From assembly GCA_963575745.1 (NCBI GenBank), contig CAUYUJ010000205.1:1-64000 (forward strand): a stretch of DNA of 64,000 bases, written 5' to 3'. Shown here piece by piece: positions 17,518 to 53,520 of this stretch (its first letter is position 1; every line of letters begins with the position of its first letter). The notes under the pieces were generated by a model. That model was not told the DNA's origin and searched no databases. It was given only the letters and a program-made list of their open reading frames with translations. The position numbers were made by a program, and so were the translations under genes. Source of the DNA: Prorocentrum cordatum. Its lineage: Eukaryota.

Positions 17518-20497
17518 TCGCGCTTTGCAGGGTCCCACGCAACGTCAACGGCGCCCCTGCAAGCGTCTTCTGCGAGGTTTCCAGCGTCCCGCGCATTGTT
17601 TCAGGCGGCCTGGCAGAGGTCCCCGTGCGGCATTCCGCGCTTGGCTTCGCTATCCGGGTTTTGGACGCTTACAAGTTCTTCCACTAGGCAGATCTTCCTC
17701 TCGCGCTTTGCAGGGCCCCACGCATAGTAACCGGCGCCCCTGCAAGCGTCTCCTGCGAGGTTTCCAGCGTCCCGCGCATCGTTTCAGGCGGCCTGGCAGA
17801 GGTCCCTGTGCGGCGTTCCGCGCTTGGCTTTGTTATCCGGGTTTTGGACGCTTACAAGTTTCCCGGAGAGCTCGCTGAGAGCGTTTAAGATTAGAAGCCG
17901 GACGGTGGTGGTGCCCGCCAGAAGCTCCTCCACGGCGGTCCACGTTCCCCGCAGCGACTCGCCTGAACCGGCAACGGGTCCGGGAGAGCCTCCGGCAAGC
18001 TTCCACGCGTGCCTGCACGCGCGGAGGCACGCATGGAGGCGTTTCGGCCAGCGCTTCGGAAGCTCTGCTGGGGAGCTTCCCAGAGATCCCCAGCACAGGT
18101 TTCCCGTAACTCGTAGAGCTTCTCTTAGCAAGTTATTGCTGGAAGCTAAGAATAATTCCGGCGCGCCCCACAGCTAGTTGGCTCGATTTTTTAGTTTTTA
18201 GCTTATTTCTGTTAGTTTTTTTTCTTTTCTTTCTTCTTTTTTTATTCGTTTAGCCCTTGTTTTATTCTTTTTTTTTTAGTTTTTAGTTTTTCAGTGATAG
18301 TTTTTTTATTTTTTTTCTTTTTTTTTTTTCTTTCTACTAGGTTTTCTAGTCTTTATTCTTTTTTTATAGTCTTGTGTTAGTCCTTTTTTCTTTCTTGTGT
18401 TATTTCTTTAGATTTTTTTCTTTTTTTTTTATCTGTTTAGTTGTGTTTCATTTTTTTTCTTTTAATTACTGTGTTTTATTCTTTTTTTTGTTTTAGTTTT
18501 TTTATTGTTTCTTTTTTAGACTAGTACTCTTTTTTTTTTTTCTTTAGTATTTAGTTGGCTCGAAAAATAACTCGTAGAGCTTCCCTTAGCTAGTTTCAGC
18601 TGGAAGCTAAGAGTAATTCCGGCGCGCCGGATAGCTAGTTGGCTTGAAAAAAAAGAACTCAACTTTTCACAATTTTTGGTCGGTTGAAAATTATGTTCTC
18701 AAAATTTGAACATTCGTTAGAGCTCTAGTATTTTTTCCCGTGATATTCGATCTTATTCCCGCTCGCCATCTTGATCCCAGCTCGATCGGATACCTTTTAC
18801 TGCGAAAAACCACACTGGCGGGATCGGCCGTTTTGAGTCATCTTGATACACGTTGTCGCTATTTTGTACTTAACTCAGTAGGACAGCTACAGAGTTGGTA
18901 AGCACAGCTATGGCACTCAGAATCATGAGCCGCGTTCGTCTGTTGAATCCACAGGTCTGAACTCTGTCTGCTAGCCGAGCTAGGTCTGCAAACCTATTCG
19001 TATTATTCGAGTCAACTTGATACGCATTTCGGTATTTTATACTTAACTCGAGCTGTAGGGCAGCTACAGTGTTGCTAAGCACACCTATCGCACTCAGAAT
19101 CATCAGGCGCGTTCTTCTGTTGAATCCACAAGTCTGAACTCGGTCTGCTAGCCAAGCTAGGTCCGCAAATCTATTCGTATTCGAGTGAACTTGATGCGCG
19201 TTGTTCTACTTAACTCGAGCTGTAGGGCAGCTACAGTGTTAGTAAGCACACCTATCGCACTCAGAATCATCAGGCGCGTTCTTCTGTTGAATCCATAGGT
19301 CTGAAGTCGGTCTGCTAGCCGAGCGAGATGCGCAAACCTATTCTTATTATTCGAGTCAACTTGATACGCGTGGTGGCTATTTTGTACTCCATTCGAGCTG
19401 CAGGGCAGCTACAGTGCTGGTAAGCACACCTATCGCACTCAGAATCATCAGGCGCGTTCGCCGCTTGACTCCAGAGGTCTAAGCTCGGTCCGCTAGCCGA
19501 GCTAGGTCCGCAAATCTATTCGTAGTATTCGAGCCATCTTGACAAACGCTCTCGGTATTTTTACAGTGCTGCGGGTCATACAAATCGATTTGCACACATC
19601 AGGCGCGTTCGTTGGTCGATTCGAGAGCTCAGAACTTGGTCTGCTGCTCGAAACAGGTCTGCGAAACTATTATATTTTTCGAGTCATCCTGAGAGATGCT
19701 CTCGGTGTTCTGCACTTAACTCGGGCTGTAGGGGGGCTGCAGGGCTTGTAATCACATGAGTCGATTCGCAGACATCAGACGCGCGCGCCTGTCGCATTGA
19801 GAGGTCTGAACTCGGTCTGATCAGACGCGTCCGCTTGTCGCATTCAGAGGTCAAAAAATATTCACTATGAGTCAGAATGTTGGTTGGTGCTCTCGGTTTT
19901 CAACTTTTGTCGAGCTTGGAAGCTCTACGAGTTCCCCGGCAGTAACCCCTGGCTCAAGCTCTACGAGTCTCCCGGCGGTAACCAGGGTTGAGGAAGCGGA
20001 GTTTACCTCCCGCTCTCCCTCGGCCTTGTCCCGTCGGGGGGCTCACTCGAGCTGCGTCGTGCAGTCAGGCAGCCTGCCCCTGGCCCGCCGCGCGGGGGGC
20101 GCGTGGCGATCGGGCCACTTCGGCGACGCCTGCACTTGTTTGCGGCATTGTTTGCACTTGTTTGCGAGCAGGCCGCCTGCACTTGTTTGCGGCATTTTGC
20201 CGCGTCGAGCTGGACTGGACGAGCCAGAGTCAATCGATCGATTTGGACCGCTGGGGAGCCAACTTCGGACATTGGGAGTGGGAGTATCTTGCCAGACAGG
20301 TTGGTAGAGCTCGACACGACGATAAGGATTCTCTAGTCGACATACCATCTGGGCCACCTGATCTCTCTCCCACTTTACCTCACCATCCTGTTGCCCCATA
20401 TAACTTTCATCAGGTGAGTGCACATCTCAAACGTACTCGAGAAGATCGATCGTTCTGTGCGAAGTGGAATATCCCTTGTAATATCTCAGACGGCAAG

Positions 20498-21546
20498 ATG
20501 GCTGCCTCATCAGCTGCTGCGGTCCCCGAGGTTTTCGCTATGGACGCCACTGATATGCCCGTTCCAGGAGCCAAGGAGGAGGAGGTCCCAGAGGGAAAAC
20601 GGGTCAAACTTCAGACGGTTGAAGGCCTCGAGGAGGCCATGACAAAGGGGATGGACAAGATCACGACGCTTGTTGCATCTCTGGGAGGTAAGATGACGGA
20701 GGGCTTCTAATCAACACATCGAAGCATCACGGATCTCGGCACCCAGCTCAATGCTCGTGTTGATTCGGTGGAGAAAAATGTACAGCAGGCGATGACGGAC
20801 ATAGATGCTATTACTAAGAAGGTTGAGGATCAGAGGCTCCAGATAATCCAGCTCCAGCAGGCTCCTGCAGGTGGGGCCCCCAGAGCAGGCACCTCTACGA
20901 CAGCGTCCTCGGCAGAAACTCGGCAGTCAGTGCAGAATTTCACCCCATCGTTCGTCGAGCTCAAAGGATGGGTGACGGACTGGAGGGATGCAGAGAAGCG
21001 TCAGGAGGAGATGTTATCACAGCAGGCGTTGAATTCACTGCTGAATGAGGTCCTGGCTGGAGAATGGTTCAGTGGTGTGAAGGAGTTTCTGGACCTGAAC
21101 CAATCCAAGAGGTTCAACACAGGTAGAGAGGCGTGGGGGTATTCGCGTGCTCGGCTCTATTTCCAGAATGGGGTTACCAGTGACCAGCTGTGTGATCTTC
21201 GTCGTCGACTCGTTGCCGCGATCGCCGACAACAAACTCCAGCACGCTCCCAGGGCCCTCAAGGTCCACGTGGAGCCCCCCCCCCCTGGAAGAAGCCCCAT
21301 CTGGATGCCGCTGGGATCTTGCAGGCCAAGTTCAAGAGTTTCAAGAAGCATCATTCGAATCTCAGGGCTGAGACGGGACCACCGATTACGTTCATGTGGG
21401 GCTCCAGTGACCACTTACCACCTCCAGGGAAGATTGTGGCCAAGTTCTCTCTGCAGAACGGCTGGGAGATCACTCGTGCAATGAATCAGCTTGAGCCAGG
21501 GATCAACATTGATGAGTTGCGAGCGAGGATTTCCAGTACGAACTAG
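20498..21546 (+). pseudogene. LINE ORF1 (coiled-coil-like N-terminus)
   Basis: MAASSAAAV... continues across a TAA at 20708-20710 and a frameshift in the C-run near 21280; heptad-like LEEAMTKGMDKITTLV...IDAITKKVEDQ; lies directly upstream of ORF2. Confidence 0.65.
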
Positions 21547-21576
21547 AGGTGCCACGACACCATTGCGTCAGGGAAT

Positions 21577-24500
21577 GTGCGTCGGGCAGGTGCAGAGAAC
21601 GGCCATGACATAATTAATTCACTACGTCGTTTAGATGTGGGACTCGCGGGGTTGTGCGAGTGTCAGTTCCTTTCAGTTCGTGATCTCAGCATGCGAGGTT
21701 ACACAATTTTTCGGAGTACTTGTCGGAAGGCTGCGGTGATTATGTCTAAGTCTTGGAGAGACTCGCTCAGAGCCACATATCGTGGCAAAGGTGTTGTCAT
21801 TTGTAGTTATTCTAGTGTTACGGTTATTGTTGCATATATGCCACATGAGAGTATCAATGCCCTTACGGAAGAACAGTATGAGCATGATGTGTATGAACAG
21901 ATATTGTTTGATATATCCCGAGTGCTTCGCACACATAGGTCTAAGTTCCCGAAGCAGCCGCAGGACCTGGTCTTCTTGACAGATGCTAACGTCGAACTCG
22001 AGCCAGATTCGGAGGTCAACGGCGTTAGAGTTACTGGATCAGGGCTTCTGGAGGCGTCTGGGATTGCTGGGGAGTCTACGGAGATTGATACTGGGATGGA
22101 GGAGGGAGCGGATGACGGCAACCCGTATATGACTCAAACAAAACGTGGTGCACGCAAAGCCAAACCTCATAGGCTTGTCTCGGGCTTCGAAATTCGACGG
22201 GCGTCTAGGTTGCAATCGATGAGGAGGGCCCTACTGGACTTCTGCGGGCTCTGGGGCATCAGGATGGAGAACACATTCGGGCAGAGGAGGGTTACTTTCA
22301 AATCAGGTACGGGGGTGAGAAGGTGCTCGACTATGTTGGTGTCAGCCGTCGTTTACACAGGCAGGAGCTCACCGTTGGCTGGATGCTGACTTCGGAAGTC
22401 GGCCACGCCTGGACGGAGCACCCTTGCAGCAGATACGAGCGTGCGCTGTCTGACCACGCCTGCATAGTTGTTCGCTTGTCTTGTGCACCGTCTGCGAAGA
22501 GACGGAACCAGCCTGCTCGAAAATTCATCCACTTGCAACCGGTGTCACAGCTGGAGTTTGCGAAGAACATGGACGATCGGGGCAGTCGTTACCGTGCTCT
22601 GTGCCAGGAATATGCTGACCCAGAGGATCGACAGGAGATGTTGGATACGCTGGGACCTGACCTCATAAAGGCCGCCGAGGAGACCCCCCAGAAAGATATC
22701 AATCCCAGGAATAATGTGCCAAAGAAATCCGAAATCCACTGGGCCGCCCAGGCAAGTAAACGTGAAGCTCTTCGTCGGGGGGATAGAGAGGAGGCTAAAC
22801 GGTGCTCAAAGATTGTGAGGAGAGAAAGAAGGAGGCTAGAGGCAAGAGTACAGAGGTGGAGGACGGAAATGAACACGAGGAGGAGGAGGAGGGCCAAGAC
22901 GGAGACGTTGATCCTGGCCAACGGGATGGAGTCTCAGAACCGCGAGGAGTGGGGGGACGAGATATTGGGGCACATGAAGTCTAAGGTGGAGGACCCCGAG
23001 GCCAGAGAGGTGACCCTGCGTGAGCTTCAGTCGCTGCGTGGTCTATGTTCGGGAAGCGGATCCTCAGAGGTGTTCTCGATGTCGCTCCTGCTGCGGGCGA
23101 GGGCGACGCTGTCCACGGGAAAGGCCCCAGGTCCCGACAACGTGACTGTCACGATGTTGAAACAGCTCTCGTGGGCATCTGTGCGACGTGTTCTGGTGAG
23201 CTTCCAAGGTGTGTATTCCAGAAGGTTATGTTGTCCCAACAGTTGGCGTCAACTAGCTGCCGCACTCATGCCAAAAGAAATGGACATACAACATTTGACA
23301 GATACACGTATGCTATGTCTACAGTCGTGTCTTATGTAATGGTACATGACATGTATTGTGATGTTGATTGAGAAGAGGATTGAGGAGCACCGACACTATG
23401 TATGCCTGTACGGATTCAGATCGGGACGCAAAACATCGGAAATCACAGCGTTGCCAAGAGGCTCAGCCAGCACTCCGCTGTCTGGGGCAAAGGAGACAGT
23501 TTGTGGCTTGCCAATCTTGATATCTTACAAGCTTTCGATAATGTTACTCCGTGCCTCGCCATGCGCTGTCTTCGTGCTCTTGACATACCTGCTGATCTCA
23601 TAGTGGCGTTGATTGAACCCATGATGGATAATCAGTGCGTGGCCAGCTTCGAGGGCATCGAGGCATCGTCAGCGGTCTATTGGGACAAATCTATTCGAAC
23701 GGGAGGAGTAGAGGGACCTATGATTTTCTGGCAGTTTCTATTGTACTCTGGAGAGATGTTATCGACAGATGGAGGCAAGAAACGCAGTACGGCATCAAAT
23801 TGGAAAATGATGAGCGCATGTTCAATGGTGAGCGTATGACCCACAGTTTCTGGGCAGATAATCTTTTGTTGTATGCGAAGACCCGCACTGACCTTGAGTT
23901 GATGGTGCGTGACATGAGTATCCCCCTGATGAATGCAGGAATGACCTGGAAGCCGAAATCTTTGATGTATATTTACTTTGGTGCGCCGCCTGGCATCCCG
24001 CCGTCCCCTGAGCAGGATATCCGTGTGCTGGTGCCGTCTAGTGACGCCGCTCTTGGGACCCGAGAAGTGGTCCTACCGCGTGTTCAAGCGTTTGAGATCC
24101 TGGGAGCCACTCTGGAGGAGACCTGGAAGGACCACTCGGACTCAGAGGCCATGCTCCAGAAAGCCCAGAGGATGTTCTTTGGGGAAATCGCGTATTACCG
24201 CTGTTCTGGGATTGACTTGGCTGAAAGATTTACTCGCTATCAAGCTAAAGTGATTGCTGCATTATTATTCAACTGTGAGGGCAGAACGCCCGACTATTCT
24301 ACCATTGCTGCTGTTCACTATTTTGAAGGCAGATGTCTAGCTATAATGTCAGGTATACGCAAGCGGAGAACTGAAGGCTGGTCTGAGTTTCAACGTAGGC
24401 GATACAAAGCGGGACGACAGAGTTTTGCTGGACTTGGATTCCGAAGTGCGGTGCAGATATGGATATTTCGTTGTTGGGATTGGGCTAAGGATGTCTCAGT

Positions 24501-25717
24501 TGCTGCAAGTATTCGTATGAGGAGATACACAACACACACAGAGGAGGAGGAGGGAGAGACGGTACCAAATCGGCGTCAGAGGAAAACTCGGGCGATGGCG
24601 GCGGCGGCGACTTCTCAAACATATCATGTATCTCAGATATCCCAGATGTCGAGTGGCTGTCGCCGGCGTACACCAGATGATCAGCCTGCCATACCTGAGG
24701 AGTCGGACATGTCACGTGAATGGATGATATCTAGGCTGGCCATGTTACATGGAAGGGGGAAGTGGACGGAACATCGTGACACATGTATTCTAGCAATGCC
24801 TGTAAAAGATAGGAAGCAGCTGACACGCATGAACATAGGCGGCCGCCCCCGTGGACATACTGCGTGGGACTGGTGCTTGTGCGATCTCTTTGGTTGTGAG
24901 TGGTACCTCTCATTCGACAGTTCCGCTGGGTCCCGTGAGAAATACTGCAAGCATTTGCTGACTGTGATTGGTATGCAACACTTGTTCGACTTGTTTGTTC
25001 TACCCAGGCCGCCTGGTGTGAGACATGTGAAGGCAGAGGAGGAGGAGGAGAGTGAGATGAATGAGAGGATGAGCAAACGTATTGCCGCAAATTTTGAGAA
25101 TGAAACGGAGTGGAGGTGTGAGAATATTGAGCGTCTTGGGATGGAGATCTTGGGAGATAGTAAGACTGTTGTAAACTGGATGTGTGGTGAGTGGCAGATT
25201 CGCAACAAGCAGTATGTACGACTGGTGGGAACACTACAAAATACGGTATCGATGCTGTCTGGATGGGGACTGACCTCACCTGCATCGGGACAGAATCTGT
25301 ATAAGCATTTCTTTCGTGAGGGTAATGAGCGTGCGGATAAATTGTCGTGGGAGGCCAGAGGTGGCCAAACTATTACTCGCTGGTTTGCATATGATAAGTT
25401 CCTCAGTACTCGTAAGACTGCTCTCCGTGGTGCATTCGATGGGGGTGTCAGTAATGAAGGATGTGGAGGTGGGTGGTGGCTTCAGATTGGCGTTGTAGGT
25501 AGGGGTTCCAGCGTGCAGGTTGATTTTCCCATCTCCTCCTCCTCCTCCCTCCTCTTCCTCCTGCACCAGCTCGCACAGCTTCCATTGGCACGATGTGGCC
25601 GAGGAGGCGATGAGCTTGCCTCCTGGTAGCACGGTAACCTGCTGTGAACTAGCTGCCTGCGCTGCCCTGACGAGAGCTGCTGCTAAGGTGGCGTGCGCTC
25701 TGCTACGACCTACCTAA
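21577..25717 (+). pseudogene. LINE ORF2: APE endonuclease, reverse transcriptase, RNase H-like domain
   Basis: APE: GLCE, TDAN, ENTF, LDYV, SDH. RT: KAPGPD, YGFR, LDILQAFDNV, IRTGGVEGP, WADN. RNase H: GDS, HFFREGNERAD, FDGG. Several frameshifts and a stop at 23337-23339. Confidence 0.9.
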
Positions 25718-26833
25718 GATGGTGGGGGCTCAGTTGCACTGCTCCGCCGATTCGGATTCGGATTCTAGTGGCGGACCGCAAACCGCAAAAAAACCACGGT
25801 TGACGGTTTACCGCCGGCGCCCAGCTTCGACGGAACTTTTGACAACTTTTGCTCGGTTGAAAATTTCGTTCTCAAAATTTGATAATTCGTTTGAGCTCTA
25901 GTATTTTTTCCCTTGATATTCGGTCTTATTCCCGCTCGCCATCTTGATCTCAGCTCGATCGGGTGAATATTACTATCGAAAAGCACTGTTGCGGGATCGG
26001 CCGTTTTGAGTCATCTTGATATGCGCTGACGGTTTTCTGAACATAACTCGAGCTCTAGGGCAGCTACAGAGCTGGTAAGCACAGCTAATGCATGCAGAAT
26101 GATCAGGCGCGTTCGCCTGTTGAATCCAGAGGTCTGAACTCGGTCTGCTAGCCGAGCTAGGGCCACAAACCTGTTCGTATTATTCGAGTGATCTTGACAG
26201 AAACTCTCGATTTTCTGCACTTACCTCGAGCTGTAGGACAGCTACAGAGCTGAAATTTAGGCACCAATTCAGAATCATCAGTTGCGTTTGTCTGTCGACT
26301 CCAGAGCTCTGAACTCGGCCTGCTGCCCGATCTAGAATCGCGAAACTATTCGTATCGTTCGAGTCGCTTGCGAGATAATGTCGGTTATCTGGACTTATCT
26401 CGGGCTGTAGGGGGGCTGCATGGCTGTTCGTTACTGGAATCGATTTGAAGACATCAGGCGCGTCCGCCTGTCGAATTCAGAGCTCTGAACTCTGTCTGCT
26501 GCCCGAACTAGTTCCGCGAAACTATTCCTATTGTTCGAGTCATCCTGAGAGATGCTGTCGGTGTTCTGCACTTAACTCGGGCTGTAGGGGGGCTGCAGGG
26601 CTGGTAATGACAGGAGTCGATTCGCAGACATCAGACGCGTCCGTCTGTCGCATTCAGAGGTCAAAAACTATTCACTATGCGTCAGATTGTTGGTAAGTGC
26701 TGTCTGTTTTCTTAACTTAAGTCGAGTTAGGAAGCTCTACGAGTCCCCCGGCGGTAACCAAGGTTGACGGTTTACCGCCGGCGCCCAGTTCCCAAAGGGT
26801 TTCTTCGCTCTCCGGGTTTTGGACGCTACCAAG

Positions 26834-28690
26834 TACCTCGTAGAGCTCTTCGTCATAACTCGTAGAGCTTCCCTTAGCAAGTAATTGCTGGAAGCTAAGA
26901 GTAATTCCGGCGCGCCCCAGAGCTAGTTGGCTCGACAAATCTCGACGGAACTTTTGACAACTTTTGGTCGGTTGAAAATTTTATTCTCGAGATTTGACAA
27001 TTCGTTAGAGCTCTAGTATTTTTCCCGTGATATTCGATCTTATTCCCGCTCGCCATCTTGATCTCAGCTCGATCGGGTGAATACTACTGTCGAAAAGCAC
27101 TGTGGCGGGATCGGTCGTTTCGAGTCATCTTGATACACGGTGACGGTTTTCTCAAGATAACTCGAGCTTCAGGTCAGCTACAGAGCTGATCAGCACAGCT
27201 TATGGATCCAGAATGATCAGGCGCGTTCGCCTGTTGAATCCAGAGGTCTGAACTCGGTCTGCTAGCCGAGCTAGGTGCGCAAACCTATTCGTATTATCCG
27301 AGTCATCTTGACAGGCGCTCTCGGTTTTTTGTACTTACTCGAGCTGTAGGACACCTACAGAGCTGATATTTACAGGAACTGATTCAGAATCATCAGTTGC
27401 GTTTGTCTGTCGAATCTAGAGCTCTGAACTCGGCTTGCTGCCCGATCTAGAATCACAAAATTATTCGTATTGGTCGACTCATCTTGAGAAGTGCTATCGG
27501 TCTTCTTCACTCAACTCGCGCTGCGGGGGGCTACAGTTTGTTGTCACAGGAATCGATTCAAAGAGATCAGACGTATCCGCCTGTCGAATCCAGAGCTTTG
27601 AACTCGGTCTGCTGCCCGAACTAGGTCCGCATAATTATTGTATTGTTCGAGTCATCCTGAGAGGTGCTGTCGGTTTTTCGCACTTAACTCAGGCTGTAGG
27701 GGTGGTAATGAGGAGTCGATTCGCAGACATCAGACGCGTCCGCCTGTCGCATTCAGAGGTCAAAAAATATTCACTATGAGTCGGAATGTTGGTAGGTGCT
27801 GTCGGTTGTGTCAACTGAAGTCGAGCTAGGAAGCTCTACGAGTCCCCGGCGGTAACCAAGGTTGACGGTTTACCGCCGGCGCCCAGTCGATGAGGTAGAG
27901 GAATTCCGGCGCGGGGTGGAGCTAGTTGGCCCACCTGGCCGAGGCGGACAATGTGGCAACTTTTGGGTGGTTTTGCGATTTTTTGAAAGATATTTGACCA
28001 TTTATTTTAAGAAAGCAGATTTTTCGCACCTGTAGACGACTATGAGGGCCTCTGCGTCTTGATATGAGCTCTCTAGATGCATTTTTACTATGAAAACACT
28101 TGGAGGAACCAACTTTATGTCGACATCAAAAAATCATGTCTTCTCTTTTTCGAGAAATGCTTCCAGCAGCCCTCTCTTTTGATGCTGAGCACTCTTAGGC
28201 GTGTCAGGAGCTCTACGAGGTTCCCGGCGGTGACCAGGTTCCCGGCGGTGACCAGGTTCCCGGCAGCTTCCCCCTGGACTTGTGCAGGGCGGATGGCACC
28301 CTGGAGTTGGCCGCAGAGGTTTCATGATCCCTAGCCACTGCGCGATCACACAGGCTGAGTTGGCAGCTGCACATTCTCTTCTCAATGGCATTGCCGAGAT
28401 GTGTATACACGTACAACTTGGCAGGTGATTGTTTGTGTATTATATCTGCACAGCTCCGCTGTTGTAAGATACATGCTTAGCCCCACTGTTTCTTTGATGT
28501 GTGTATATTCCTGTGCAGCTACGCTGTTGTATCATATCTGCACAGCTACGCTGACTTGTATATCGCACAGCTCCGCTGTTAGTGCTTAGGTTGCCTGTAG
28601 GTAATCCTACCGCTGGCCCTGCCCCCTAAGGGGGCTCGAATCGGGCCCCGCAGACCGCAGACCAGGTTGACGGTTCACCGCCGGCGCCAG
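26834..28690 (+). mobile_element. Family B element hosting a family A copy (26856-27886) and a truncated LINE
   Basis: CTCTTCGTCA|TCGATGAG rejoins the B head; tail hairpin split at about 28265-28660. Confidence 0.8.
28265..28660 (+). mobile_element. 5'-truncated relative of the 19950-25791 LINE
   Basis: Last coding segment CAITQAELAAAHSLL...stop (28339-28428) parallels STVTCCELAACAAL; tail CCGCAG-ACCGCAG-ACC; same insertion point. Confidence 0.65.
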
Positions 28691-35500: not shown

Positions 35501-37771
35501 GCTCAGAAATCGGTCTGCCCAAACTAGGTTCGCGAAACTATTGTATTGTTCGAGTCATCCTGAGAGGTGCTGTCGGTTTTCTGCACTTAACTCGGGGGCT
35601 GTAGGGGGGCTGCAGGGATGGTGATGACAGGAGTCGATTCGCAGACATGAGACGCGTCCGCCTGTCGCATTCAGAGGTCAAAACGTATTCACTATGAGTC
35701 GGAATCTTGGTAGGTGCTGTCGGTTTTCTCAATTTAAGTCGAGCAAGGAAGCTCTAGGAGTCTCCCGGCGGTAACCAAGTTTGACGGTTTACCGCCGACG
35801 CCCAGTTGAAAGTCCGTTTTACAAACAGGTATTTTTCCCACCTGTAGCGGGTTATGCCGCGTCTGCCAGTTAAATTCCCAGGTCTGGTAATACTACTATC
35901 AAAAGACTTGAGGGAACCGTCGGCCGTTTCGAGTCATCTTGATACGCGTTGACGGTTTTCTGTACTTAACTCGAGATTTAGGACAGCTATAGAGCTGATA
36001 CTTACAGAAACCGATTCAGAATAATCAGGCGCGTTTGTCTGTCCCATCGAGAGGTGTGAACTCGGTCTGCTGCTCGAGCTAGGCCCGCAAAACTATTTGT
36101 AATATACGATCATTTTGACGAGTGTTGTCGGTTTCCCTTAACTGAAGATTTAGAAGAGCTACAGAGCTGGCACGCATATAAACCGAGCCAGTATCACCCG
36201 ACGCGATTTTTCTCGCATCGAGAGGTCCGAACTGGGTCAGGCAGCTAGGTCCACGAAGCGAAGATGCAACATTTAAAAAACATATTTTCGGATATTTCTT
36301 CTTCACGCTTGAGAAACTTCTTTCGTGTGCTTTGAGCAGCACCGCGCCAGAATAGAGCTCTACGAGGCTCCGGCGGTTACTGGTTGACGGTTTACGCCGG
36401 ATCCCAGTAGAGCTTCCCTTAGCTAGTTGCTGGAAGCTTAAGAGTAATTCCGGCGCGCTAGAGAGCTAGTTGGCAAGAAAAATCTCGACGTAACTTTTGC
36501 TGACTTTGGGTCGGTTGAAAATTTTGTTCTCGAAATTTGAACATTCGGTAGAGCTCTTTTTTTTTCTGTGATATTCGATCTTATTCGCGCTCTCCATCTT
36601 GATCTCAGCTCGATCGGGTACCTTTTACTGCAAAAAAGCACTGTGGCGGGATTGGCCGTTTCGAGTCATCTTGACACGCGGTGACGGTTTTCTGTGGACA
36701 TAACTTGAACTTTAGGACAGCTACAGAGCTGGTAAGCACAGCTAATCGATTCAGAATGATCAGGCGCGTTCGCCCGTTGAATCCAGAGGTCTGAACTCGG
36801 TCTGCTAGCCGAGCTAGGTCTGCAAACCTATTCGTATTATTCGAGTCATCTTGATAGACGCTCTCGGTTTTCTGTACTTAACTCGAGCTATAGGACAGCT
36901 ACAGAGCTGATACTTACAGAAACCGATTGAGAATCATCAGTATCATTTGTCTGTTGAATCCAGAGCTCTGAACTCGGTCTGCTGCCCGATCTAGAATCGC
37001 GAAACTATTCGTATTGTTGGAGTCATCTTGAGAGATGCTGTCGGTTCTCTGCACTTAACTCGGGCTGTAGGGGGGCTGCATGGCTGGCTATCACTGAAAT
37101 CGATTCGAGAACATGAGGCGCGTCCGTCTGTCGAATCGAGAGCTCCGAACTCTGTCTGCTGCCCGAACTAGGGCCGCGAAACTATTCGTATTGTTGGAGT
37201 CGTCTTGAGAAGTGCTCTCGGTTTTCTGCACTCGACTTGGGCTGGGGGGGGCTACAGTAAAAGTAAGGAAGCTCTACGAGTCTCCCGGCGGTAACCAAGG
37301 TTGACGGTTAACCGCCGGCGCGAGTGGTCCCTCGGGTTCTGCAGCGTGTCCCGGGGCGTCCGTTCCAATGCGTTCCCGTAGAACGTGCTCCAGAGGCCTC
37401 GCGAATGTGCCCCAGAGGCCTCGCAGAGCTTCCCGGGCAGCGAGCGCCCAAGCGTTCAGGCACGCGTGGAGGCGTCGCTGTCTTCCCTTCAGGAGCGCAG
37501 GCAAGCTTTCCAGCGCCACCACGCACGTTTGCTAGCAACTTGTGCAGCGCTTTAGAAGCTGACACCTCTGCGCACGTCGAAGACGTGCACCGGGCCTTGC
37601 GCGCGCAGCACTCTAAGGGAGCGTAGAGGCACGCGCGGTGCCAGGGGCATGACCCAGGTCTGGCGCGACGAGACCCGTGCGCGCGCGTCTCTGGCTTGGC
37701 TATCCGGGTTTTGGACAACAACAGGTTTAGTGCGTGTCCTCTTTGCTCTCCGGGTTTTCGACGCTACCAAG

Positions 37772-38168: not shown

Positions 38169-38985
38169 TTATCTGAAGACCCGTCAGCGATCTGCTTGTC
38201 AAACTTCTGAGCAAACACGACTGCATGACTGTTGACAAGTTTAGAGAGAAAGGTGCGGCCGAAATATTTCTTGCCATCGGCAGAGTTGCGCCGTTTGTTG
38301 GTATGCTTGGTGCGTTTCGCAGCCTAGCGTAAAAAGTGCAGAAGCGGCTGCATGATAAGTGATATGCAAGAAGAAGACAAATGAGTTCTTGCCACATGCA
38401 TTTAATTTTTTGGATCGATGTTCCTCCTGATATTGGTTCGCCTCATCTGCGCCAAGATCCTTGAGTTCTCGAGGGCGCTTAGCCCTGGCGTGTTGGAAGA
38501 GCTTGTCAAAGGCAGCTGGAAGATGATCCAAAGCTTGGACAATCGAGCTTACAGGCTCGTGAACACTGCCCCACCTGATTCGAATACAACGGCTGGGCGG
38601 GCTAGGTATAGTCGCCTCGACGTCGGCGCCATCGCCCTGAAAAATATCCTTCAAATTGAGACGCGCTCCAGGCCCACGGCAGAGGTGCGAAATCAACAAC
38701 AAGCCCGTCACGAACTTCACGGCACCAGGAGTCAAACACTTCAAGCAACTTCTCGAATATGAGCTGGCACTGGCGTAGAAAACACCAACACACTGCGATC
38801 ATCATGGTCTTGAAGGGGCGAACGCGGCACACCGATGTTCGCACGGAAAATACATTATCGCCGCCCTTATCGACATTCATCATGTACAATTGCATGGGGC
38901 GCCCAGGTCCAGAAAGCAAATTCAGTGCCCCAGCCGATGCCAACTTGTTGCATGCGTCGTCGACTCAGGTTCGTTCTCTGCTAAT
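38169..38985 (-). pseudogene. Central part of a decayed hAT-like DDE transposase
   Basis: Ordered motifs VDKGGDN, WCFLRQCQL (CxxH with CAC>CGC), PSRCIRIRWGS (like hAT TRWNS); frameshifts and one TAG. Confidence 0.55.
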
Positions 38986-41661: not shown

Positions 41662-42530
41662 GCTGAGGCAATTCAGCTGGTGGATTGTCGGCCAGACCAG
41701 ATGATCAAGGCAATTGCGCTAGTGACAGTCGGCAAGACAGCAGACTAGAGCATATGCGCTGGTGAGCAGCCCAAGCTGGCGGCCCACCAGCGCAAATGCT
41801 CTAGTCGGGTGGCTGACCGACGGCGACTAGCGCAAATGTCTTGGCCAGCGGCGCTGACGGACGGCTCACCAGCGCAAATGCCTTAGTCTGGTGGCAGGTT
41901 GGCAGCGCCTAGCGCAAATGCCTTAGTCGGCTGGTCGGTGGGAACGGTTCCAGCGCAAATGCGTTAGTAGATGCAACGCCAGCGCGGCAATTGCGCTGGC
42001 AGGCCGCCGCCAACCAAAGCGCTGACCTCAGCATTTGCGCTAGTCGCGGCAGAGCAGCCGCCAGACTGAAGCATTTGCGCTGGCGGCCTCGCGCTGACGG
42101 GCGCACTGCCAACGCAATTGCGCTGGTCACCTGTCAGGCTGGGCGACCGCGAGTGACGCGAATGCGCTGGGCAGCGCATCAGCGCCCGACTCACTAGAGC
42201 AATTGCGTCAGCTTCTGGCGGCGGCCAACGCAATTGCCCTGGTAGCCCTCACATGGCCAGCTGACCAAGGCATTTGCGCTAGACGCGGTCGCCCAGAAGC
42301 CCCACTAGAGCAATTGAGCTAGTGGGGTGTCGGCAGGGGCGCAGCTGACCAGGGCATTTGCGCCGGTCGCGGTTGACCAACGAGCTGGCTGGAGCAATTG
42401 CGTTGGTGGGCTGCTCAAGTGGGCTGCCTACTAGCGCAAATGCACTAGTATCGCGGCTGGCCAGCAGCGTCTAGCGCAATTGCGTTGGGCAGCTGGTCAG
42501 CAACAGGGCCACCAGCGGAAATGTGATGGT
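41662..42530. repeat. Array of 22 degenerate 20-bp palindromes (consensus ACYAGCGCAAWTGCGCTRGT) with unique spacers
   Basis: Starts at 41662, 41704, 41744, 41786, 41826, 41868, 41908, 41949, 41981, 42025, 42065, 42108, 42152, 42193, 42224, 42264, 42304, 42348, 42388, 42430, 42470, 42511. Confidence 0.9.
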
Positions 42531-42688
42531 GGATTTCAGCAGAATAATGATTACAGCCCGCTGTGTTATTGTAGCGGCGCATGTCGCATGCAGTTACGTG
42601 CGTGCGTGGAACAGTGGCAGTCATAAGCGATCAAACGAAAACAAAAAACATACACAACAAAAACACAAGCTATAACAACAAACAGAAT

Positions 42689-42692
<4 letters not shown>

Positions 42693-42725
<33 letters not shown>
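42693..42725. repeat. (AT)n microsatellite
   Basis: Direct reading. Confidence 0.95.
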
Positions 42726-42730
<5 letters not shown>

Positions 42731-45419
42731 CACACCAAAACGAAATGCGCACCTGCACGATGAGACTCATCACGTGTACCTACAATCCGTGCAGAAATGG
42801 CCCACGTGCCACGCCGTCGGTCTCGACCATCCCACCCCAAACTGCCCCCAACCCCAACGTGCTTGACGTGCCTGGGTCGTGTGTCAACGGCCCCTGGGAC
42901 TGGGACGTTCGAGTGCATCTAGTCGGGGGCCGCTACCCGGCTCCAGAGATGCAGCCCTCTCTCGTTCCTTCACTCCCTCCGTTTCTCCATCTCCATCTCC
43001 CTCTATTGGTGTTTTTTTTGTTCTCCCTCTCTCTCTCTCTTCCCCCTCCTCCCTCCGACGCCCTCCTGGTTGCCTTCGCTGTCTTTGGGCAGAAGTCGAA
43101 GCCCCTCGCTAATGTTTTGGGGTAGCCTCCTGGGTTCCCGCGCGAGGGCTCGTTCTGGAGCAGGGTTCGCTCGGTTCACAGTCTCTCTGTTTGGGCCGAT
43201 CTGCGTGGCAATAGGGTCAACCGCCACCCTCCCCCTCCCCCCCAAATCCCACTGTGACATGTGACGCCGTCTTTGGGCGGTCGTGGACCGAGGCTGGCAC
43301 CGATCCGGCCTACCCATCCAGCGGTGAAGCCGCTTTGGCCCGAGAGTCCTCCGCCGGGTGAGAGAGGTCTCGGGCCCGCGGCTCGCTGCCAGCCAGACGC
43401 GCGCCACACCGCGGCTGCGGCCGCTGCAGCGCTGCCGCTGCGATGCCGCTCGTCTCGGCCCAGGCGCAGCAGGTTGCCAGGGTAGAGTGCAACCTCTCGC
43501 GTCAGGACGTGGAGGCCCTCGTTCGAAAGGCCAGAGCAAGGTGCACCGACGAGTGGGACAACAGCGGGAAGTACACCCACGTCAGGGACAGGTGGGGCAG
43601 CGACATGACGATGTTTGAGCTGCGGGTCATCGCGGAGAGGTTGTACTGCGACGACGATGATGCGACGATCACGCTGGTGGGCCCTGACGGCTGGACGTGC
43701 AAGAGGCATTGGTCGGGTCAGTGCGGCGTCGGCCCAACAGCGCTGGGAGTGGGACTTGGTGGGCGCCTGCTTTTAGAAAGTGGGCGCTCGTCGAGTCGCG
43801 CCGCCAGCGCGTTGGGCGACGCCGCATTGCTCAATCACACAGGCATCGGTTTAACGCTCTTCGCGGCGACGCAGGCTCGGTGGCCAGCAGGCAAAAGTCG
43901 CTGGAGACAGTTGGGTTGCTGTTGGGGCTGCGGGTGTCGCCAGACTTCGTGGAGGAAGAGAAGGCGTCTACTCACTTCTTGACTGGGGGACGCTTCTGGC
44001 AGACGCTGGCAAGAAGGCGTGGGAGGCCGACGTGAAGAAGGAGAACAGGTGCATCCAGCTCATGGCCAGCACCGTGCTCAAGGGGTGCAGGAGGTACGCG
44101 AGGGCAACGTCCGACGACGTCCTGAACTTCCTCATCGAGTACAAGAACGTGGTGAACGGCCAGGTGACAGAGATCACCATCATCCAGATCTGGGAGTCCA
44201 CGCGCAACGTGGAGCTCCGATGCAAGCAGCGGGCCAAGCAGATGGGTTGGGGAGAAATGGCATGGGACAAGCTGTTGGACTTGAAGTACGAGACGGCCGT
44301 GTCGTATTATCCTGGGAGGTGGGCGAACCCGACGAGCTACAAGGTGTCCTCCAGCTTCTACCGTTTGTCGCAGCTTCGCATCATCGATGCCGATTGGAGG
44401 GGCGATCATTTGGAGAAGGCCGAGCAGATCAGCGTGTGGGAAGCCACGGTCAAGGTCGTGAACGGCGAGTGCGACTTGCAGCACCCCGCAGCTCGCAAGA
44501 CCGCGACGATCTTCCAGTCAGTCAACGCGTGCTTCGTGGTCCTCAAGGTATGGGGTGCGCCAACGGCCCATATGCAGGGTTCACGCCGAGTTAGCTTCGG
44601 GCCAGGGCCTGGTCGATCCTGGGCCCTGGCCCTGATCGGCTCGACTTGGCGTGGATCGCTGCGTGCTGGGTCGTTGGTGCCCTTCTAACAGGCAGACTAC
44701 CCTGAGCTCGTGGCCGATTGCGTCCGCATGGTGGTGCCGATTCCACAGGATGCCAAACCTGTTGGTCAGTGCAAGGGGCTCAGCCCAGGATTGCAGAACC
44801 CAGGGTTCAAGACGCAGATCCGCGAGCCCATGGTGAGGAGGTTCCTGCAGGACATGTCCAACAGCGAGGCATTCAAGCAGCTCGCGAACCCAGACTCCTA
44901 GCTGCACAAGGACTTGAAACTGAAGGAGGCCAAGGCGATGTTGAAGGCAGCCAGGGCGGCGGCCCGCGAGAAGGAGAAAGCTGACAAGAAGAAGAAGAAG
45001 TCTGAGGCGGCAAAGGCCGCAGCGAGTTTGGTGACTAAGTCGGGCCCACGCTGGAGGAGACAGAAGGGCGCAGCAAAAGAGAAGACTGCCTCACGTCCAG
45101 CGTCGAGCCTGAAGGCTGCCGCGGCGACGAAGTTCCGCAAGCAGCAGCAGCAGAAGCTCAAGGCGCAGCAGCCGCAGATCAATGACGTGGAGGTCACAGA
45201 GGTACAGAGCGGCATGGGGACGTGGAAGTTCGTGGGCTTCGCCAGGAGTTTGGCCGGCGAGATCGAGCGGATCAGCCCCGACTCGAAGGACTTGTGCCGC
45301 CAGGTGTGGGTCTTGGCGTTGTTCGGCGCGATCGCGGGCTCCGTCCCCTTGTGCGGCGCCAACGACAAGGTCGTGGACTGCGTGGATTTCACGGCGTTCG
45401 CCAAGAGGGCGAAGGCCAG

Positions 45420-45923
45420 TGCGCCTCCTCCTCCAGCTCCTCCTCCTCCTCCCCCCCCACCTCCACCTTCTCCTTCTCCTCCTTCTTACCCTTCCCCTCC
45501 TTGCCCCGCTGGCCCCCTCATGCTCCTTACCCTCGTCCTACGACAACTATTGTTATTGTTGCTCTGCTCACCGCTCACCCTCACTCCCGTTCTCCCTCCT
45601 CCTCCTCCCTCCTCCTCCTCCTTCTCTTCATTTTTCCCCTTCCCCATCCTCTCCGCCCATATGTCCAACTTCGTATCTCTCTCTCTCTCTCGCGCTCTGT
45701 CTCTCTATTCCTTTTGCTCAGCCTGTCTCCCACCCTCTCTCTCTATCTAACACTAGTTTTAGTTCTCTCATTATATCGTTGCCAATAGCTCATGGTTTCC
45801 TTTCTCTCGCTCTCTCTCCCTCCTCGTCGCTCTCTACCGTTCCCCTCTCCCTCCCCCCTCTATCTCTACCGTGCCCTTCTCCCTCCCTCCACATCCCTCC
45901 CCTCCATCCCCCTCCCTCTCCCT

Positions 45924-45958
<35 letters not shown>

Positions 45959-48320
45959 TCTTGGCCTTTTTATAAATATTCCCAGGCCATCTTCTCGACT
46001 CGACCCACCCCGCCGTTACCTTCCTCTCACCCTCCCTCACTCGCCCTCTCTATCTCTCTCGTCTCTGGCTGTTCTCGCCCTTTTGCAACCTCCATCCTCC
46101 GTCCACCGCCCGCAATCTTCCCCCTTCCTAACTTCCTTGTTTGCATCAATGCACGTCCCATCCCCTATCTGGAATTAGCTGGAACTCTAACTCCCCTCCC
46201 AATTCCCCCCCTCCTCGCCGCCCATGGCCCCTTCCCGACTTTGCCCTGCCGCCCCGCCCGCCGCAGGCGGTGGCATGCAAGGGGGCGCGCAAGCTGAAGG
46301 CCAGGCCGAGCGATTCGGACTGCTGCGACTTCGATATGCTGCCGCTGAAAAGCACGCCCGCCCATCCGAAGACGACGGCTGAGGACAGATTGGAGAGGGC
46401 CCCCCTGAGGGGAGGGACGGGAAGAAGGAGAAGGAGGAGGAGGAGAAGAAGGAGGAAGAGACAACGAGGACGGGGGCGGTTGGGGAAGAGGACGAGGAGG
46501 GGAAGGCAGAAGCGAAGGGGGGATGAGGGGGGGAACGAGGAGGAGGAGGAGGAAGAGGATGGGGGGGGGGAAAAAGGGGGAGGAGGACGCGGAGGAGGAG
46601 GATGAGGATGAGGATGAGGAGATGATGATGATGATGGTGATGAGGAGGGAGGAGGAGAAGGAGGAGGAGGAGGAGGAGGAGGAGGAGGAGGAGGAGGAGT
46701 CGAGGAGAAGGAGGAGGAGGCGGAGGAGGAAGAGGAGGAGGAGGGGGAGGAGGAGAGGAGGAGGAGGAGGAGGAGGAGGGGGGGGGGAGGACGAGGCTGG
46801 GAGAGGAGGAGGAGGAGGAGGATGAGGGGAGAAGGGGAGGAGGAGGAGGAGGAGGAGGAGGAGGAGGAGGAGGAGGAGGAGGAGGAGGAGGAGGAGGAGG
46901 AGGAGGAGGAGGGAGAGGAGGAAGAGGAGGAGGAGGAGGAGGAGGAGAAGGAGATTGATGAGGAGGACGGCGCCGACGCCGACGACGAAGATGAGGATGA
47001 TAATGCGGAGGAGAAGGAGGAGACAGAGGAGGAGGCTGACGAGTATGAGGAAGAGCAGGAGGATCAGGAGGAGGAGTAGGGGGAGGATGAGGAGGAGGAG
47101 GAGGAGGATGAGGCGAATGATGAGAATACTGAGAGGGAGGGCAATGAGGAGGAGGATGAGGAGGAGGAGGATGAGAAGAAGGAGGATGAGGAGGAGGAGG
47201 AGGTGTAGGAGCAAGATGGGACGGTGGAGGAGTTGGAGGACCAGGATGAGATGGAAAGGGAAGAGGAGGAGGATGAGGAGGATGCTCGCACCGAAGGGCT
47301 CACGGTGTAGCCATCGCCGCGCCTTCGAGCCGAGCGGCCGCGCGGGGCGCCCGCGGGGCCGCGCATGGACGAGGGCGAGGCGCTTGCGTTCGCGCTGCCC
47401 AAGCAGCTGCCAGCAGGGGCGGTGCCCAAGCATCCGCTCTTGTCGCCAACGCAGCCAGCGGGGCCGCCGCCCGCGCACCTGCTGCCCCAGCAACACCAGC
47501 AGCAGCATGGGCAGCAGCGCCAGCAGCAGCAGCACCAGCAGCAGCCGATTGTTGTACCACCGAAGTTTCACAAGCCGCTGCTGCGGCCGCGGCGCTCCGC
47601 CGCCCCGCCTGCCAACGAGTTCGCCGATGCGGCCGCCTGCGTCGACGCCGGCGCGGCCGGCGACGTCGGCGCCGCCGCCGCCGCCGAGGTCGCGGCCGAC
47701 AGCGCCGCCGCCGGCGCCGAGCCAGCGGCGGGGGCCGCGGCTGCCGCGGCTGCAGGGGCAGCGGGCGCCGAGGAGACAGGCGCTGACGCTGCTGACGCTG
47801 ACGGCGCTGATGACGCCGCTGACATCAGTGAGGAGGAGCGGGTCGCGGCCGCTGCCCTTGCCGCGGCCCACGCCGCCTTGCAACGGACAGATGAGCTCCT
47901 CACTGGTGCCATCGCGAACTACCGCACGCTGTGCGAGACAGAGGTCAGCACGCGAGACCTTCTCGAGCAGGCGGAGGCAGCCTACGACGCGGCCCACGAA
48001 GCGTACATGCAAGCATTCGAGGGCTGCAGGCTCGGGAGGGCCGACGGCGAGTCGGCAGTTGCGCGGCGCGAAGAGACGTTCCGCGCGCACCGCGCAGCGC
48101 GGGGTGCTTTGGCGGCGGCCCTCGACGAAGGACCACCCCAGGGCCAGAAAACGGCCAAGGGAGAGGATGAAGGAGGAAGGGGGAGAGGATTGGGGGACGG
48201 GTGAGGAGGCGAACCAGTGAAGAGGAGGAGGAGGAGGAGAAGGAGGAGGAGGAAGAGGAGGCATGCTTATGCGAAGCCGTCGTCGTGGTCGTAGTCGTCG
48301 TCGTCGTCGTCGGCCTCGTT

Positions 48321-48352
<32 letters not shown>

Positions 48353-51300
48353 TGTCTTCGTCGTTGCGTCGTCGCCAATGCCACCGCCGCCGCCTCTCCT
48401 CCTCCGTCTCCTCATCCTTTTCCTCGTCCTCCTGGACCTCCTCCTCCGCCTGGTCCTCCTCCTCCGCCACCTCTCCTATCACCCTCCCCCTCCTGCTCTT
48501 CTACGTCCACCTTCTCATCCTGCTTGTCCTCCCTCCCTCCCCCTCTTCATCCTCATCGTCCCTCCACCTCTTCCTCCTCCTCCTTCTCCTCCTCCCTATC
48601 ATGCGCATCCTCGCCCTCGTCAGTGCTTCGCTTCGGGCCTGCATCGCGATCACCATCGTCCACATCTGCATGCACAACGAGAATTTCGTCACCAACATCA
48701 CGCCCCTCCGCTTCACCCAGAGACACAGCATTACCAGACCCACTACCACTATCATCTCCATCACCACCATCAGCATCACCATCACCAGCATAATCAGCAT
48801 TATCATCATGGCCTTCACCATCATCCACAACGACAACATCAGCATCAACATTATCAACATTAACAATTTCAGCATCATCATCATCAATGTCAGCATCAGC
48901 ATCATCCACGTGCTCATCATCATCAACATCATTGTCAGCATCAGCAACATAATCCTCAACCTCCTCATCATCCGCATCACCATCATCATCCCCGTCCTCA
49001 TCAGCATCACCATCTCCATCCGCATCACCATCGTCCCCCTCGACATCATCAGCATCATCGTCACCAACATCACTATCGTCCTTACCGTCCTCACTCATTC
49101 TTCTCATGTTACCCATCTCCAGCTCCATAATCGCCTTCGCCCACGTCCTTGCACCAATCACGCGAATCGTCATCGGCGCCATTGCCGCCAGCATCACCAT
49201 AGCATCCTGCAACACGCCCTCAACCTCAGTCTCATCAACATCCCCATTGCCATTCTCATCCCCATCTTCATCCTCGCCCTGACCCCCATTAACCATATCA
49301 CCATCACCATCCTCGTCCGTACCCTCATTATCATCCTCATCTCATCCCCACCCCCAACACCATCCGCATCCTCATCCTCAACAACATCCTATGCTTATCC
49401 CCCTTCCCATCGACGTCCCGCATTCTCGACGCTTTCGCATCCCCGTCATCATCTTCATCATCATCGCCATCCCCCTTCTCGCCATGCTCTTGCTCCTCCT
49501 CCTCCTCCGTCTCGCCCTCCTCCTCCTACTCCTCGGCCTCCCTCTTCTCCTCCTCCTCTTCCTCCTCAGCCTTCCTCTCCTCCTCCCTCGCCTCCTCCGC
49601 CTCCTCCTCCTTATCATCCTCATTCGTATCCCCACCATTGGTGAGGATACTAATGATGAGAGTGGCGTTGATGATGATGATGATGGTGGTGGGGGGTGGC
49701 GATGGCGGTGACGGCGACGATGGCGATGTAGATGATGCTGATGGTGAAGGAGGAGGAGGAGGATGAGGGGAGGAGGAAGAGGAGGAGGAGGACGGATGGA
49801 AGGGGGGGGGGGGGCTCGGGGAGAGAGGAGGAGGAGAAGGGGGAGAAGGAGGGGGGGGGGATGAGGGGGGGGAGGGGGAGGGGGGGGCGGGGGGGGGGGA
49901 GGGGGGGGGGGCAGGGAGAAGAGGATGATGCAGATGAGGAGGCGGGCAGCCGGTGACGGTGATGGTGATGGTGATGACGAGGATGCTGAGGGCGATGGCA
50001 CTGGCGATGGCGATGCGGGGGAAGAGGAGGAGGGGGGAGGAGGAGGATGCGGCGGGGGGGGGGGGGGGGGGGGGTCGAGGAGGAGATGGGGAAGGATGAC
50101 AAGGGAGAGGAGGAGAGGAGGTGGAGGGGGAGGAGGAGGAGGAGGAGGAGGAGGAGGAGGAGGAGGAGGAGGGAGGCGGAGGAGGAGGGGGAGGGGGAAG
50201 AAGAGGGGGATGGGAAGAGGATGCGGAGAAGGAGGCGGGAAGCGGAGAGGCTTGAGGGGGGCGAGGAGGAGGGGGGTGAGGAGGAGGACGAGGATGAGGA
50301 TGAGGATACGGATCATGATGAGGAGGGGGAGGGGGGGGAGGAGGAGGAGGAGGAGGTGGAGGAGGAGGAAGAGGAGGAGGAGGAGGAGGAAGGGGGGGAG
50401 GTGGCGACGGAGGAACAGGAGGAGGAGGATGAGGAGGGGGAGGAGAAGGAGGAGGAGGAGGAGGAAGGGGAGGAGGGGGGGGATTGGGAGAAGTAGGCGG
50501 AGGAGAAAGAGGAGGAGGCGGAGGAGGAGGAATGCCGCCTAGAGGACGTTGAGGCGCTCGTCGAGACGGAGCTCAGCGACGCGCAGTCGCTGCTCACGTT
50601 CGTCGGGCAGAACCGCTTGGGCATGGACATCGAGCGGGGCCAGGAGCTGATGCAGGTGGTGACGGGCGCGATGATGACGCTCCTGAGCAAGGTGACGGTG
50701 CTCGGCGGCCACGTGGAGTCGCAGGAGGTTGCGTGGAAGCTGCTCTCCACGGCGGTCTTCGACAAGATCGGGGAGACGGTGCCGCCAGCGTGGGGCAAGG
50801 TGCTGAAGTCGTGCCAGAAGATCAAGAGCGAGGGCGTTGGCGAGTACGTCAACGGTGGCAGCCCGCACAAGGCGCTGATCGAGGGGGGCTTCACGGTGCA
50901 GCAGATGACGGCGTACAAGGCGGGCTTGCTCTTGAGCGTCGCGTCGCAGCTGGGCAACATGGAGGTGAACATTGTGCCTCGAGGCACGGTGCCGTACGTG
51001 CCGCACGTGATCAAGCTCCACATCGACGAGCTGAAGGAGAAGCACTCGCTGCAACACGTGCTGCACGACGAGTCGCAGGTTGCGCAGATGCCGTTCGTGA
51101 AGTTGCGATCGGCATTCGAGATCAAGCAAGGCGAGGCGGTGGCGTTCAACGCGATCGCGGAAGCTTGGGCGAAGCACGAGAACGGCCTGCACGCCCGCGC
51201 CGTGAGCCTCGGCATGGGCAACTACCTCAGCGACGTGATCACAGCCACGGACGAGCTGACGACGTGCACGAGGATCGGCCAGTGGCAGACGAAGGTGACG

Positions 51301-53420: not shown

Positions 53421-53520
53421 NNNNNNNNNNNNNNNNNNNNNNNNNNNNNNNNNNNNNNNNNNNNNNNNNNNNNNNNNNNNNNNNNNNNNNNNNNNNNNNN
53501 NNNNNNNNNNNNNNNNNNNN
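53421..53520. other. Assembly gap (100 N)
   Basis: Run of n. Confidence 1.

Follow-up and report, generated by a model that had tools for sequence, protein, structure and literature searches.

A putative circularly permuted type-1 RNase H domain at the C-terminus of ORF2 in a LINE family

The question raised by this locus is whether the RNase H motifs at the end of a retrotransposon gene, which do not stand in the usual order, belong to a single circularly permuted domain. The locus lies in a stretch of 64,000 nucleotides from Prorocentrum cordatum (assembly GCA_963575745.1, contig CAUYUJ010000205.1, positions 1 to 64,000), here called the window, and within it in the second open reading frame (ORF2) of a long interspersed nuclear element (LINE). 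All coordinates are those of the window, and features are on the + strand unless stated otherwise. In canonical type-1 RNase H (Pfam RNase_H, PF00075, and RVT_3, PF13456) the structural elements follow the order β1-β2-β3-αA-β4-αB-αD-β5-αE, the five strands form a sheet in the order 3-2-1-4-5 against which the helices pack, and the enzyme depends on metal ions to cleave the RNA strand of RNA:DNA hybrids. Our reading, to which we assign a probability of roughly 0.87, is that the C-terminal ~170 residues of ORF2 form one type-1 (archaeal-like, RVT_3-like) RNase H whose gene order has been circularly permuted. The normally second half (β4 with the GDS Asp, αB, αD, β5, and αE with RE.N..AD; the C-half below) would be encoded first, and a linker of 24-48 residues would bridge the former C- and N-termini. 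The normally first half (β1 with the FDG Asp, β2, β3, and αA with the AEL Glu; the N-half below) would come last, after which the protein ends. Both halves are predicted to pack into one sheet with β4 beside β1, which would place the four carboxylates close to one another, as they are in canonical RNase H.

The preliminary description of this DNA, made from the letters alone, had listed the motifs GDS, HFFREGNERAD, FDGG, GCGGGW and TCCELAAC, followed by the stop codon, and all were found in that order when the ORF frames were inspected and when hidden Markov models (HMMs) built from each half of the family were run on the six-frame translation of the window. GDS starts at 25153, HFFREGNERAD at 25306, FDGG at 25435 and GCGGGW at 25459, all in the frame of ORF 23632-25629; TCCELAAC starts at 25637 in the +1 frame (ORF 25499-25717). 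The C-half (25132..25362, C-half HMM E=5e-26) comprises β4 with the GDS Asp codon at 25156, αB, αD, β5, and αE, where the last Asp codon of HFFREGNERAD is at 25336. A linker between the two HMM matches (25363..25416) then joins the old termini, from αE to β1. The N-half is in two parts, the first (25417..25503, N-half HMM positions 4-32, E=1e-10) holding β1 (FDGG, Asp codon 25438) and β2 (GCGGGWW), and the second, in the +1 frame (25568..25699, positions 33-76, E=5.4e-12), holding β3 and αA (TCCELAAC, Glu codon 25646). These codons supply all four carboxylates, and the ORF2 stop codon (25715..25717) lies 16 codons past the end of the N-half match. Judged from these HMM matches, an arrangement of this kind is far beyond chance. 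Taken as a single sequence, the window copy is matched only weakly by Pfam (RVT_3, E=0.0069, 16.7 bits vs a cut-off of 21.6, profile positions 65-93 of 123).

Between β2 and β3 lies a (TCC)n serine tract (25531..25564), and comparison of the frames places the frame change inside it, at ~25549. A frameshift in a CCT tract ahead of TCCELAAC had been noticed before, and it holds; the position then given for the motif, 25646, is that of its Glu codon. The frame break appears to be specific to the window copy, because the serine tract is read in one frame in P0004, a transcript product with 97% identity to this stretch (the P-numbered proteins, such as P0004, P0006 and P0011, are relatives from homolog searches with this LINE family). 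Public contigs over 24900-25800 all break at the repeat 25524-25572, where an assembly error and a true frameshift look alike. Near-identical copies of 24900-25800 are present in contigs from several public DNA runs, and part of the stretch also in a polyA metatranscriptome.

The same order of halves runs through the family. The last 309 in-frame residues of the window were used as a phmmer query against 1.84 billion (1.84e9) cluster representatives, which returned 163 relatives at E<=1e-3, 42 of them at E<=1e-10. The family counts that follow refer to the best 150 of these 163 matches, representatives that are less than 50% identical to one another. With the half HMMs, 116 had the C-half followed by the N-half, 23 the C-half only (mostly fragments), one the N-half only, and 10 neither (upstream-only fragments or doubtful matches); none had the N-half followed by the C-half. 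The C-half thus came first in 116/116 representatives with both halves. At the level of motifs, RE.N..AD precedes FDG[GAS] in 92/92 relatives with both patterns, at a spacing of 24-48 amino acids (median 31). When cluster members were included (163 proteins with any match), the tally was 133 with the C-half then the N-half, 25 with the C-half only, 3 with the N-half only and 2 with none; N-C, N-C-N and C-N-C architectures were absent from these 163 proteins. The full-length proteins P0011 (1306 residues), P0024 (1455), P0027 (1299) and P0169 (1279) each have one C-half and one N-half and end 5-17 residues later, and homologous proteins mostly stop 1-33 residues past the N-half. Since the swapped order is family-wide, it is not a local rearrangement, and the earlier view that the permutation is shared by the family is supported.

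As to where the family occurs, the closest named relative of the window copy is a transcriptome protein of the green alga Pyramimonas (82% identity over 119 amino acids). Distant members are found in dinoflagellate gene models, and most relatives are unnamed environmental records. In one dinoflagellate gene model, P0134 (908 residues), the permuted RNase H occupies residues 342-465 and is joined to a DAHP synthase domain (PF00793, E=8.7e-39), probably because the prediction of a host gene has absorbed a piece of a retroelement.

Each half can be related to RNase HI by sequence. A family profile built from 65 sequences was searched against all PDB chain sequences (177,635 distinct) and matched six RNase H sequences and one noise sequence (E=8.8). 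The RNase H matches were, in order, 4e19_A (E=2.8e-9), 3u3g, 4h8k, 3aly, 2ehg and 3hst, with meaningful E-values from 2.8e-9 to 8.3e-5. In the HMMER alignment with 4e19_A the register is swapped, profile positions 73-147 falling on chain residues 134-197 and positions 156-229 on residues 64-129, and the carboxylates of the family align with the corresponding residues of that chain. A separate profile of 20 N-halves was built because the N-half stretch is weak alone in the full profile, and its sole PDB match at E<=10 was again 4e19_A (E=0.01, profile 8-73 on chain 68-128), with the FDG of the family aligned to the FDG of the chain and AE to AE. That the only PDB match of the N-half is the best match of the C-half is, as a sequence argument, the strongest for one permuted domain. 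A protein-language-model search, useful as a lead only, placed RVT_3 and RNase_H clusters nearest (0.90-0.92).

Several observations weigh against this reading. Inside the full family profile the N-half stretch has an i-Evalue of 0.2. None of eight homologs reaches the RVT_3 cut-off of 21.6 bits, the best scoring 19.3. Only two of 12 single N-halves gave sub-threshold Pfam matches (RNase_H, E=0.063; RVT_3, E=0.051), both at the correct N-terminal positions of the profile, and one of 20 matched NCBIfam RnaseHI_Halo at E=0.057, amid eight unrelated families at similar E and hence at noise level. An hhalign comparison of the family profile with E. coli RNase HI was not significant (probability 0.9%, E=0.061, C-half only). 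Finally, no duplication intermediate was found, and the origin that we propose below is to that extent conjecture. The RVT_3 matches that do occur in the family cover only profile positions ~56-123, that is, the first-encoded half, and the listed members from the full-alignment homolog search carry no precomputed Pfam domain.

Low scores against RNase H models would also be expected of a permuted RNase H fold that is catalytically dead and serves only as a nucleic-acid-binding or structural module of the ORF2 protein, and many LINE clades work without an RNase H of their own. The catalytic residues speak for a different outcome. The Asp of FDG is conserved in 110/110 aligned representatives, the Glu of AEL in 89/90, the Asp of GDS in 114/117 and the Asp of RE.N..AD in 129/131, and the Asn of RE.N is kept in 130/131, which amounts to 97-100% for the Asp/Glu/Asp/Asp tetrad and the Asn. 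In RNase H-like domains that are dead, the catalytic residues have typically been lost, and we regard a dead domain as improbable here. Because these residues are kept across representatives less than 50% identical, the permuted domain would be an active RNase H that clears the RNA template after target-primed reverse transcription. In LINEs that bear an RNase H, the enzyme usually degrades the RNA strand of the RNA:cDNA hybrid and thereby allows second-strand synthesis.

Structure prediction is consistent with one domain. An AlphaFold2 model of P0006, computed with the family alignment, has a mean predicted local distance difference test score (pLDDT) of 92.1 and a predicted template modelling score (pTM) of 0.80. 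Its strands (E) and helices (H) are E72-78, H81-88, H96-115, E127-129, H136-144, (E151-155, H158-162), E167-177, E180-191, E194-205 and H211-234, which reads β4-αB-αD-β5-αE-linker-β1-β2-β3-αA, the linker forming a short strand and a short helix. In the model, then, the element order of the family is the canonical RNase H order, rotated. When the two halves of P0006 were folded as separate chains, they docked with a score of 0.70 (best control 0.02), a mark that in a benchmark was reached by 51/78 solved complexes and 2/108 mismatched pairs. The docking runs agree in at least 92% of contacts, with a partner pLDDT of at least 77. Residues L76-G78, just before Asp79, lie against R169-F172, just before Asp173, which sets β4 against β1 as in RNase H; A138 and S142, which flank Asp139, lie against Asp173 and β2, and V83 lies against Glu215. 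These predicted contacts are the neighbourhood expected of an RNase H active site. The docking result may be due to the model's memory of RNase H structures, and that likeness is itself the point in question.

A caveat comes from searches that align structures in sequence order. Foldseek against the PDB, which aligns in this way, gave no RNase H among the matches listed, and another sequence-order fold-library search retrieved RNase H only through the first half. The Foldseek matches at E<=0.001 were two PelC chains with template modelling (TM) scores of 0.25-0.26 and a root-mean-square deviation above 10 Å, which we judged to be meaningless. With the rotated element order, the docking of β4 beside β1 and the match of each half to the same RNase HI chain, the predictions agree with the RNase H fold that had been suggested for this region.

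A permuted order could be mimicked if the region held what is left of two RNase H domains in tandem that do not combine into one, the first having lost or diverged in its N-half and the second having lost its C-half, with the pieces independent or non-functional. By the textbook account a permutation arises through duplication and then deletion, and such a stage probably existed: we consider it likely that the permuted domain itself arose by tandem duplication of the RNase H coding region and subsequent loss of the outer halves. Some distant members (P0059, P0083, P0122, P0129, P0143 and P0150) also have an unexplained, partly conserved C-terminal extension of 25-45 residues after αA (W.P... 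and then a hydrophobic, strand-like stretch), absent from the subfamily of the window, which could either be left over from a duplicated β4 or have been added. An FDG/E half before GDS, which would point to tandem domains, was looked for in the homologs and not found. No upstream N-half was present in any of the 54 proteins with more than 100 residues before the C-half, the best weak match having E=0.28 over 25 residues, and AlphaFold models the 133 residues of P0007 that precede the GDS strand as all helical; together these results answer the question of tandem domains in the negative. Neither N-C-N, C-N-C nor N-C arrangements occur among the 163 proteins counted above, the monomer model is one confident unit whose halves dock, and conservation of 97-100% at the catalytic positions across clusters less than 50% identical is unexpected in decaying remnants. 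We therefore regard tandem remnants as very improbable, and less so only than the weakest alternative discussed below. Homolog searches for canonical relatives, intermediates or a sister clade returned family members only: four matches with the N-half alignment, nine with the full alignment, and P0011 alone with the reverse transcriptase region of P0011.

A cryptic upstream FDG motif was also considered. Such a motif could be proposed before GDS in the window ('YLSFDSS') and in P0011 ('FYDGS'), the only such case among the best 150 relatives; it was rejected since the motif is not conserved in other full-length proteins, and the region is predicted to be helical.

A swapped order due to local rearrangement, faulty assembly or chance in the window copy has next to no probability, for although this copy is frameshifted once within the domain and at least three times upstream of it, and the repeat tract is the breakpoint of all public contigs, the family survey refutes it: the same order is found in 116 of the best 150 cluster representatives and the reverse in none, it recurs in the in-frame transcript product P0004, and the stretch is near-identical in contigs of several independent runs, with HMM E-values down to 5e-26.

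The permuted RNase H domain is part of a probable APE-type LINE of 5806 bp (19992..25797), full-length but degenerate and present as a single copy within the window. It is flanked by a target-site duplication read in the sequence, with left and right copies of GGTTGA at 19986..19991 and 25798..25803, and the insertion splits a palindromic site of the surrounding satellite, which resumes at 25798. The hallmarks of a LINE are present in this 6-bp duplication, in a 5'-truncated relative and in a short A-rich tail; no terminal repeats belonging to the element, inverted or direct, were found. The 3' untranslated region and the tail (..CCGCAAACCGCAAAAAAACCAC) occupy 25718..25797, and other copies of the element in public contigs have an A run at the end, followed by the same target sequence.

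A putative ORF1 region consists of two frame pieces in the ORF list (20498..21484), and its stretch 20711-21484 matched no Pfam family at E<=0.1. A reverse transcriptase core fragment at 23468..23749 (residues 29-122 of ORF 23384-23839) is matched by Pfam RVT_1 at E=2e-5 and 24.8 bits, under the cut-off of 29.6 bits, which is exceeded in the full-length homologs P0011 (34.3 bits) and P0024 (32.3 bits), both alignable along the window ORF2 by tblastn. The APE endonuclease family Exo_endo_phos gave no Pfam match in the window's own ORF pieces and a weak one in residues 20-86 of P0024 (E=0.05, 13.8 bits vs a cut-off of 24.5). By tblastn, the ORF2 homologs P0011, P0024, P0027 and P0169 cover 21643-25651 in frames 1, 3, 2, 1 and 2, the changes falling near 22300 (1 to 3), 23450 (3 to 2), 23735 (2 to 1) and 25549 (1 to 2). 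Because at least four frame changes are needed to follow the full-length homologs, the window copy is degenerate and a dead element, provided that the assembly is correct at these points. The placement of the domain in a LINE ORF2, as first described, holds, with this copy broken in at least four places. Searches outside the family were empty: phmmer of P0011 against PDB sequences gave nothing at E<=0.01, tblastn of the C-terminal region of the window against phages gave no match, and neither did tblastn of P0053 against plasmids at E<=1.

Downstream, a diverged relative of the LINE is inserted at the same satellite site as a 5'-truncated copy of ~0.4 kb (28259..28662, approximate ends, from the junctions and the N-half HMM). 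Its ORF at 28252-28428 had been described as also ending on TQAELAAA, and this is confirmed: the motif, which corresponds to the αA helix, is at 28348, and the stop codon at 28426-28428 follows 19 codons on. The N-half HMM matches this copy over positions 42-76 at 28306-28410 (E=6.7e-6).

The satellite extends over ~600-39540 in ~177-bp units that are organized in ~1.1-kb higher-order units, with a recurring palindromic site CCCGGCGGTAACC..GGTTGACGGTTTACCGCCGG, for example at 26747-26781 and 27845-27879. Both LINE insertions (at 19991/19992 and ~28259) are inside this site, and in a public run other copies have loose ends in which the A-rich tail gives way to the same target sequence. As the two insertions and the ends of the other copies share the palindromic site, the LINE is suggested to be target-specific. 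Rfam and tRNA scans of the whole window found nothing, which means that the satellite target matches no known RNA gene. Two N-half-like HMM matches inside the satellite, at 38245-38352 (+ strand, E=0.12) and 37311-37763 (- strand, E=0.68), are not significant. Elsewhere in the window, a second stretch resembling reverse transcriptase lies on the minus strand at 56762-57979; it is 20-24% identical to the reverse transcriptase of the ORF2 family (tblastn E 5e-9 to 4e-4) and is probably another, unrelated retroelement. A run of 100 N at 53421-53520 is an assembly gap, and the block 42001-56000 is GC-rich, at 0.59-0.665 vs 0.44-0.55 in the satellite and LINE region.

Among known systems, the closest in sequence are the archaeal-type RNase HI proteins, the only meaningful PDB matches: those of Halobacterium (4e19/4nyn) and Sulfolobus tokodaii (2ehg/3aly), LC11-RNase H1 (3u3g) and the N-domain of M. 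tuberculosis Rv2228c (3hst). Like them, the LINE family has FDG, AE, GDS and RE.N..AD, at 19-26% identity over the structurally aligned half, and the element count of the model suggests that it shares their lack of a basic-protrusion helix. Unlike them, the LINE domain has its halves swapped and joined by the 24-48-residue linker, and it is not a free-standing protein but a C-terminal fusion to a LINE reverse transcriptase.

An archaeal-like RNase H (aRNH, RVT_3) at the C-terminus of L1 LINEs in plants and oomycetes is reported by Ustyantsev et al. 2017 (PMC5348765). These elements are APE-type LINEs, as the permuted family probably is, and resemble it in having an archaeal-like RNase H as the last domain of ORF2 and RVT_3 as the best Pfam match; they differ in that their domains have the canonical order, as modelled by Pfam RVT_3. 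Passages of CIRPIN 2026, a study of automated circular-permutation discovery, report an unnamed pair of 'ribonuclease H-like domains' in AlphaFold DB clusters (PMC13552848). That pair is likewise a natural permutation in an RNase H-like fold, one that only a permutation-aware method picked up; neither a protein family nor a retrotransposon is named in the passages, and identity with the LINE family cannot be told from them (PMC13552848). In the relevant passages of the human ORF2p structure paper (PMC10830420), 'permuted' refers to thumb helices and not to RNase H. No account of a LINE with a permuted RNase H came up in a full-text literature search.

For folding studies, E. coli RNase H has been circularly permuted in the laboratory, and the resulting proteins show that the fold tolerates new termini. 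Those permutants are engineered, not natural, and belong to the bacterial subfamily with the basic protrusion.

A fuller claim can be put forward tentatively, and we hold it to be somewhat less probable than its negation. The family might hold a natural circular permutant of type-1 RNase H that is catalytically competent, the first to be described, fixed in a diverse clade of marine algal and protist LINEs (from green-alga-like and dinoflagellate records) and arisen by duplication and deletion within ORF2. Movement of the attachment point from β1 to β4 might then change the way the active site faces relative to the exit channel of the reverse transcriptase, and the elements would at present be annotated as lacking RNase H. 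If so, they would be annotated in this way because Pfam and sequence-order fold searches miss the domain.

RNase H serves as a model fold in studies of protein folding and of how retroelement domains evolve. A natural permutant that keeps its four catalytic residues over more than 100 sequence clusters would mean that this fold can be re-threaded in nature, and it would provide a natural counterpart to the engineered RNase H permutants of folding work. Internal duplication followed by deletion would be an added mechanism for the evolution of LINE ORF2 domains. There would also be a blind spot in annotation, in that LINE surveys which sort clades by the presence or absence of RNase H would misscore this clade. 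Lastly, the new point of attachment to the reverse transcriptase could make the geometry between reverse transcriptase and RNase H testable.

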